This document shows, in pieces, positions 10,355 through 10,454 of a stretch of DNA of 64,000 nt. How positions within the stretch are numbered: position 1 is the stretch's first letter; each line of letters begins with the position of its first letter. A program made the translations under genes and the position numbers. Origin of the DNA: Escherichia coli. Its GTDB lineage: Bacteria; Pseudomonadota; Gammaproteobacteria; Enterobacterales; Enterobacteriaceae. Under the pieces are notes generated by a model. The model was not told the origin of the DNA and ran no database searches. It saw only the letters and a program-made list of their open reading frames with translations. The DNA lies in the NCBI RefSeq assembly GCF_003334405.1, contig NZ_QOWM01000003.1, one strand, 5' to 3'.

Positions 10355-10375
10355 ATATGCACTTTAAATGCATAT
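10355..10375. promoter_or_regulatory. 21 bp near-perfect palindrome ATATGCA-CTTTAAA-TGCATAT upstream of astC; candidate repressor/activator operator (ArgR-type box plausible)
   Basis: Inverted repeat read directly in sequence; the ast operon is known to be arginine/ArgR and NtrC controlled. Confidence 0.4.
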
Positions 10376-10438
10376 GGTTTGGTTATAACTCCTTGATTTC
10401 CAGTTAGCCTCCGCCGTTTATGCACTTTTATCACTGGC

Positions 10439-10454
10439 TGGCACGAACCCTGCA
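10439..10454 (+). promoter_or_regulatory. sigma-54 (-24/-12) promoter candidate for astCADBE
   Basis: TGGCAC-gaacc-cTGCA matches TGGCAC-N5-TTGCA, with GG and GC 12 nt apart, about 70 nt upstream of the astC ATG; astCADBE is known to be NtrC/sigma-54 dependent. Confidence 0.6.

Follow-up and report, generated by a model that had tools for sequence, protein, structure and literature searches.

A known sigma-54 promoter and a predicted pair of ArgR boxes in the astCADBE control region of Escherichia coli

Upstream of astC in Escherichia coli, a near-perfect palindrome stands ahead of a sigma-54-type -24/-12 element, and this arrangement raises the question of what the palindrome is and how it would take part in nitrogen and arginine control of the operon. 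The window (the whole stretch of DNA analyzed, 64,000 nucleotides long) carries xthA on the minus strand at 9275-10081 and, on the plus strand at 10527-11747, the 406-amino-acid coding sequence of astC, the first gene of astCADBE, followed by astA and astD (RefSeq annotation). When the 445-bp xthA/astC spacer was compared with that of K-12 MG1655, 443 of the 445 positions were found to be identical. The two SNPs were located at 10215 (A here, G in K-12), in an NtrC-like site designated A, and at 10512 (G here, A in K-12), in repeat DR1 of the ArcA site, while neither the palindrome nor the recurring half-site nor the promoter differed from K-12 MG1655. Because only two spacer positions differ, published K-12 data are directly transferable to the spacer in the window, the NC_000913.3 coordinate being 1831982 + (10527 - window coordinate). 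The 433-bp stretch 10094-10526 was present in 5,425 of 5,426 complete E. coli genomes, as was the core at 10335-10470. Two minor observations came from the genome matches to 10094-10526: in NZ_CM177011.1 a single piece amounting to 63% of the spacer was matched, in two places, so that the xthA-proximal end of the spacer may have undergone an insertion or rearrangement, and two copies of the spacer are carried on plasmids.

The region is the core of the already characterized astCADBE control region, and as such it is ordinary and already known. The K-12 control region is the same locus, with the same 17-mer of the sigma-54 site OS17 and the same listed regulators, namely RpoN, RpoS, ArgR and NtrC; CpxR is mentioned as well. 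The promoter of astCADBE has long been studied as a sigma-54 case with combined NtrC (nitrogen), ArgR (arginine), RpoS (stationary-phase) and ArcA (anaerobic) control. The discovery value of the region is accordingly little, and its main use is as a positive control for reading from raw sequence alone, the promoter and the arginine-responsive elements having been located at the right coordinates by a reader who had only the sequence. Footprinting of K-12 astCp with its NtrC enhancer and ArgR sites was reportedly described by Kiupakis and Reitzer in 2002, and footprinting of the Salmonella Typhimurium ast control region is said to have been described by Lu and Abdelal in 1999. For comparison across genera, the astC loci of 80 other species-level enterobacterial genomes were collected, giving 81 loci with the E. 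coli window.

The promoter astCp, TGGCACGAACCCTGCA, was found exactly where the earlier note had placed a sigma-54 element, at 10439-10454 on the plus strand. It reads TGGCAC-N5-CTGCA, with TGGCAC as the -24 and CTGCA as the -12 block, and its GG (10440-10441) and GC (10452-10453) doublets are 10 bp apart, as in the consensus TGGCAC-N5-TTGCW, from which it departs by a single mismatch (the first T of TTGC is replaced by C). Counting gave no excess of this pattern, three occurrences with at most one mismatch being found in the window compared to 3.6 expected. The element TGGCAC-N5-[C/G]TGCA occurred at a fixed distance of -87 to -92 from the astC ATG in 77 of the 81 enterobacterial loci, which bears out the earlier remark that its distance from the gene is suitable; the remaining four loci have TGGCAT. 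In the alignment of the 80 sequences, columns 10434-10446 and 10451-10454 were invariant or nearly so (at least 90% identity) and columns 10447-10450 were variable. Conserved blocks around a free spacer are the signature of a -24/-12 promoter.

Published binding data agree with the conservation. The E. coli sigma-54 ChIP-seq site OS17 has exactly this sequence as its 17-mer, CTGGCACGAACCCTGCA; it is 62 nt away from astC, its center corresponds to 10446 in the window, and it is marked as previously confirmed. The Salmonella orthologue, TGGCACGAATGCTGCAAT, was bound by sigma-54 in ChIP-chip (Samuels 2013). In addition, astCp has served among five reference NtrC-dependent promoters and was called weak. 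It is conservation together with published binding data, and not counting, that raises both astCp and the palindrome above chance, and the sigma-54 element at 10439-10454 is real and already known. From the published 62-nt distance to astC, the transcription start is predicted at the A at 10465 on the plus strand, which follows the GC doublet by 12 nt and precedes the ATG by 62 nt, in agreement with the start that the earlier note had predicted. The numbering of a published astC footprint fragment, -166 to +62 from the start, also fits a start at 10465.

Further elements were seen between astCp and the astC start codon. The block ATCTACATTTACAGCGCAAAC at 10455-10475 was invariant. A scan of 10000-10600 for sigma-70 promoters and terminators gave matches at background level only. 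TTTACA at 10462-10467 and TATTAA at 10485-10490, separated by a 17-bp spacer, are conserved and make up a candidate promoter of the sigma-70/sigma-S type, whose start would be near 10497, a short way downstream of the sigma-54 start. This candidate would fit RpoS-dependent expression of astC and the position "-22 to +22" quoted for the ArcA site. That site, bound by ArcA-P in anaerobic repression, comprises four direct repeats in the astC 5' leader at 10473-10515 on the minus strand (published as 1830018-1830060) and was delimited by a 44-bp DNase I footprint. The published ArcA-P sequence is the reverse complement of 10473-10515 with one SNP at 10512, where the window has G in place of the A of K-12 and of most other species; the position falls in DR1, the weakest of the four repeats.

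The 21-bp palindrome, ATATGCACTTTAAATGCATAT, was confirmed at 10355-10375 as a near-perfect symmetry in E. coli, its coordinates being exact. It is centered at -100 and contains ATGCA (10357-10361) and TGCAT (10369-10373) separated by seven nucleotides; the inverted-repeat search described it either as perfect 7-nt arms around CTTTAAA or as 9 of 10 pairs around a 1-nt center. A full-text literature search for the palindrome sequence found no paper. Over the 80 species, 10345-10375 contained no insertion or deletion at all, and the conserved string over the palindrome region was found to be TATTCACTTTnTATGCA-N7-TG[A/C]ATA. Five of the six positions in each arm (TATGCA and TG[A/C]ATA) were invariant or nearly so. 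The middle position was G in 73 species and T in 7 in the left arm, and A in 69 and C in 11 in the right arm, so that the middle pair was complementary in 18 of the 80 species and non-complementary in 62, with covariation not above chance. Most genera carry TATGCA-N7-TGAATA (right arm TGAATA in 63 of 80 species, TGCATA in 11), 6 to 7 of the 10 palindrome pairs are retained in most species, and near-perfect symmetry is largely a feature of Escherichia, shared by a few further genera. In 78 of the 80 species, 65 nt separate the palindrome from the -24 element, a constancy that argues for a phasing constraint.

These findings bear on whether the palindrome might be an RNA or DNA hairpin, or a chance palindrome without function. 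The sequence folds at -6.8 or -7.5 kcal/mol (z about -3 to -4), and palindromes with at least 9 of 10 pairs arose in 4.6% of dinucleotide shuffles of the spacer, as did perfect 7-nt-arm inverted repeats in 30%. The site nevertheless lies upstream of the mapped start, the mismatch of the middle pair in 62 of the 80 species is not accompanied by compensatory changes, and the Rfam search gave one sub-threshold mgtC_leader match (E=0.15), treated as chance. Arm bases that stay invariant while only 6 to 7 of 10 pairs survive point to protein half-sites and not to a stem, and they rule out chance, so that a hairpin or a meaningless palindrome is scarcely credible here. Since the arm bases are kept without pairing, what is selected is the sequence TAT[G/T]CA of each arm by itself and not the pairing between the arms. 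TAT[G/T]CA is the half-site of an ARG box (canonically TGAAT-N4-ATTCA), and the one variable arm position is that at which ATTCA and ATGCA differ.

The protein that would recognize such half-sites was approached with an ArgR matrix, consensus-seeded and converged on ten MG1655 ArgR-controlled promoter regions, which recovered the known paired boxes of carAB, argR, argA, argECBH, argD, argF, argG, argI, artJ and artP. ArgR is a documented regulator of astCADBE with binding sites in the regulator listings, and its binding geometry consists of two 18-bp boxes with a 2- to 3-bp spacer, a hexamer bending the operator by 70-90 degrees. The best ARG box of the spacer, ATTCACTTTATATGCACT at 10346-10363, includes the left arm of the palindrome and scored 11.8 bits, rank 2 of the 64,000 window positions. 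Among the 80 species, its score was 6 bits or more in 75 and 9 bits or more in 63, and it was the top register of the 80-species profile. The partner box, AATGCATATGGTTTGGTT at 10367-10384, is conserved in its left half alone (TGAAT in most genera); 10367 was the strongest conserved left-half register of the 80-species profile, with a score of 9.0, and the right, outer half was not conserved. The pair 10346-10363/TTA/10367-10384 ranked 9th of the 64,000 window positions, with weak outer halves. Its gap lies within the 2-3 bp of a two-box operator, and it has the 39-bp operator length and the ATTCA-N7-TGAAT junction, the two palindrome arms forming the inner halves. The palindrome is thus predicted to consist of one half-site from each of two neighboring ARG boxes, namely the inner halves that face each other over the 3-bp TTA spacer.

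In the E. coli spacer taken alone, a box of at least 11.8 bits occurred in 12% of dinucleotide shuffles (P=0.12), the spacer being AT-rich. When the 80-species profile was used, the real matrix exceeded column-permuted palindromic matrices of equal composition with P=0.003 for the best register and P=0.0003 for the top four. The top right-half registers of the 80-species column profile were 10418, 10344 and 10355, and the top left-half registers were 10367, 10294 and 10419; these coincide with both palindrome arms and with the recurring half-site, plus two further elements. A distal ARG-box-like sequence, TCTGCATAACATTGCGTT at 10294-10311 (6.5 bits), has a conserved TG[A/C]ATAA left half, with a left-half profile score of 8.5, and scored 6 bits or more in 53 of the 80 species. 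The sequence at 10276-10293 is weakly ARG-like, at 5.2 bits.

The same half-sites and ATTCA-N7-TGNNT junction geometry are found in the argF, argI and carAB operators. The 3-bp TTA spacer of the ast site is shared with argF and argI, and argF has in its operator box junction the 14-mer ATTCACTTTATATG that occupies 10346-10359 here. The ast site differs from these biosynthetic operators in the weakness of its outer half-sites, the pair scoring approximately 9 compared to 26-40. It also lies at -80 to -120 of a sigma-54 promoter and is activating, whereas the argF, argI and carAB boxes overlap a sigma-70 promoter and are repressing.

The register of ArgR binding and its exact coordinates are predictions. 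A second register 11 bp, or one helical turn, away is also possible, in which an ARG-box-like sequence, ATCGCAAACGTATTCACT at 10335-10352 (6 bits or more in 49 of the 80 species, with its right half ATTCA at 10346-10350 invariant), would be paired with 10356-10373; this combination gave the highest cross-species pair score, 11.0. Either register accounts for just two of the three conserved half-sites (10346, 10357 and 10369). That the palindrome might instead be one self-contained, non-canonical ARG box, TGCAC-N5-ATGCA in register 10356 or 10357-10374, bound by a single ArgR dimer pair, is unlikely. As a single box it scored 7.6 bits at 10357-10374 (rank 29 in the window) and 4.7 bits at 10356-10373 (rank 114), compared to 8-22 bits for the training boxes, and register 10356 takes part with 10335 in the best cross-species pair. 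The canonical 18-bp box WNTGAATWWWWATTCANW has its half-sites 4 bp apart and was not matched by the palindrome, in which they are 5 bp apart as TGCAC/ATGCA, a gap one base longer than in any training box. Neither register is conserved: a score of 6 bits or more was seen for 10357 in fewer than 12 of the 80 species and for 10356 in 26. The right arm in most genera, TGAATA, has the left-half orientation. The two-box reading, in contrast, takes the arms as halves of separate boxes.

The half-site related to the palindrome that the earlier note had seen recurring at about 10418 was found exactly, as TTTATGCAC at 10417-10425, centered at about -44. It reads TTATGCA in 75 of 80 species. By direct-repeat search, exact copies of TATGCACTTT start at 10356 and 10419, 63 bp (3 x 21) apart. 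The -44 element gave the top ARG right-half register in the 80-species profile, with a score of 10.3, and no conserved full ARG box was found around it in that profile (mean of -0.6 bits at 10419).

These properties raise the possibility that the TAT[G/T]CA elements at 10345, 10356, 10369 (inverted) and 10418 are bound by another regulator, for example a factor for ArgR-independent arginine induction. Such induction is said to be named in the title of the 2002 report of Kiupakis and Reitzer. Both TATTCACT and TTATGCA show a stricter invariance than the ArgR matrix demands, the -44 element lacks a conserved full ARG box and the matrix match is not significant in a single genome, all of which would suit a different protein. 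Against this, permuted matrices fit the conserved columns far less well than the real ArgR matrix does, ArgR is documented at astCADBE, binding sites included, and none of the other known motifs compared fits. A different regulator is on this evidence quite improbable, and ArgR half-sites are the preferred reading of the palindrome. The comparative analysis adds one minor point to what was known, namely that selection is on ARG half-sites at a fixed helical phasing and not on the palindrome as such.

Two sequences resembling the 17-bp NtrC dyad TGCACC-N5-GGTGCA were found farther upstream. Site A, TGCCCGCTTTTAGTGCG at 10204-10220, is centered at about -253 and has four mismatches here. Its majority sequence across the 80 species is TGCACCATTTTGGCGCG, with invariant TGC and GC columns, and the SNP at 10215 makes the window the poorer match to the NtrC consensus, A giving AGTGCG where the K-12 G gives GGTGCG. 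Site B, TGCGTCAGAATGGCGCA at 10224-10240, is centered at about -233, 20 bp from site A, and has three mismatches; it is conserved across genera as TGC-N9-GGNGC, with the majority sequence TGCGCCAAAATGGGGCG. Taken singly, both A and B are weak matches that do not rise above chance. Lying approximately 130-160 bp farther upstream, these tandem sites at 10204-10240 are a candidate NtrC enhancer. NtrC ChIP-seq and gSELEX peaks fall within the xthA/astC spacer at low resolution, and the ChIP-seq interval corresponds to window positions 10432-10512, over the promoter and not over the proposed sites. The resolution of the ChIP-seq table looks too coarse to decide, the intervals for ddpX, nac and rutA also lying on sigma-54 motifs.

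The presence of these better-conserved sites at 10204-10240 also weighs on the idea that the palindrome itself is a low-affinity NtrC site, comparable to the "governor" sites of glnAp2. The operon is NtrC-dependent and the left arm does contain the NtrC half-site TGCAC. The palindrome, however, did not match the 17-bp dyad: it has TGCA-N7-TGCA where TGCA-N9-TGCA is needed, 2 bp short, and its right half is mismatched. The base following TGCA varies freely (C in 32, T in 20, A in 19 and G in 9 species), and the right arm is mostly TGAATA. An NtrC site at the palindrome is very improbable, and the two inner ARG half-sites remain the preferred assignment.

Between the NtrC-like sites and the ARG boxes, AAATTTCG at 10253-10260 and GATCACAATTCCAGAATTATATTT at 10266-10289 were nearly invariant in Enterobacteriaceae. 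A CRP reading of AAATTTCG-N-GATCACA was rejected, the half-site spacing being off by one. On the minus strand, a perfect TATAAT was seen from 10286 to 10281 with no good -35, and it could be a divergent xthA promoter.

The claim that nitrogen and arginine control the AST pathway from this region held up against the published data, since the listed regulators include both NtrC and ArgR, and ArgR gives an arginine-dependent extra induction. ArgR with arginine raises expression of the sigma-54 ast operon as an accessory, non-essential factor, and astCp has been described as a weak promoter naturally helped by ArgR, as glnHp2 is by IHF. The likeliest mechanism is one in which sigma-54 RNA polymerase would wait as a closed complex at 10439-10454 until phosphorylated NtrC, bound to the tandem sites approximately 230-255 bp upstream (predicted at 10204-10240), acts on it by looping. 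The palindrome, centered at -100, would then sit inside the enhancer-promoter loop, where arginine-bound hexameric ArgR at about -120 to -80 would bend the DNA by roughly 70-90 degrees. Such a bend would bring the distant NtrC to the weak promoter and give an arginine "superinduction" over nitrogen control, so that arginine would amplify the nitrogen signal and not replace it. In this scheme TTTATGCAC at -44 would add one more conserved half-site, set in phase with the palindrome at 63 bp. The model as a whole, that is astCp with ArgR boxes in the loop and an NtrC enhancer upstream, is probably correct. The exact ArgR register, the positions of the NtrC sites and the bending mechanism at astCp are its inferred parts.

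In combining a weak promoter with a DNA-bending protein between enhancer and promoter, the proposed arrangement resembles that of IHF-assisted sigma-54 promoters such as glnHp2. At ast the bending protein described is ArgR, giving arginine-dependent aid, compared to IHF at glnHp2, and a putative IHF core is present at 10386-10398 as well. This core, AATCAAGGAGTTA (that is, WATCAANNNNTTR), lies on the minus strand with its center at about -73. It matches the IHF core sequence perfectly and is the sole exact match in the 64-kb window, although counts of the IHF consensus in the window carried no statistical significance. Across the 80 species, its YAA and TTGAT columns were invariant and the N4 between them was variable. 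In the literature examined, there was no published assignment of IHF at astC, and IHF was absent from the regulator listings. The second minor point added by the comparative analysis is this conserved perfect IHF core, together with the -44 half-site, neither of them assigned in the literature examined. There is a slim chance that the IHF core at about -73 and TTATGCA at about -44 are unrecognized parts of the switch, for example with IHF and ArgR jointly shaping the loop, or with the -44 element being targeted in ArgR-independent arginine induction.

The Salmonella loci have much of the same layout. The ast operon of Salmonella Typhimurium shares both the orthologous bound sigma-54 site and the ArgR-assisted activation, and the Salmonella arizonae locus of the comparative set has the same conserved blocks. 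Unlike E. coli, Salmonella Typhimurium has TGAATA as the right arm and CCATGCA as the left flank, which leaves no near-perfect palindrome, and the bases of its -24/-12 spacer also differ from those of E. coli.

Two further sequence matches were noted. The sequence CGCAAACGT at 10337-10345 matches the left half of a PurR operator perfectly, and GCGCAAAC occurs again at 10468-10475. A PurR reading of CGCAAACGT was rejected, as the match is a half site only and occurs only in Escherichia and Citrobacter; it is probably fortuitous. Outside the ast region, ATAGGATTTTTATACAGT at 32332-32349 had the highest ArgR-matrix score of the window, 13.3 bits.
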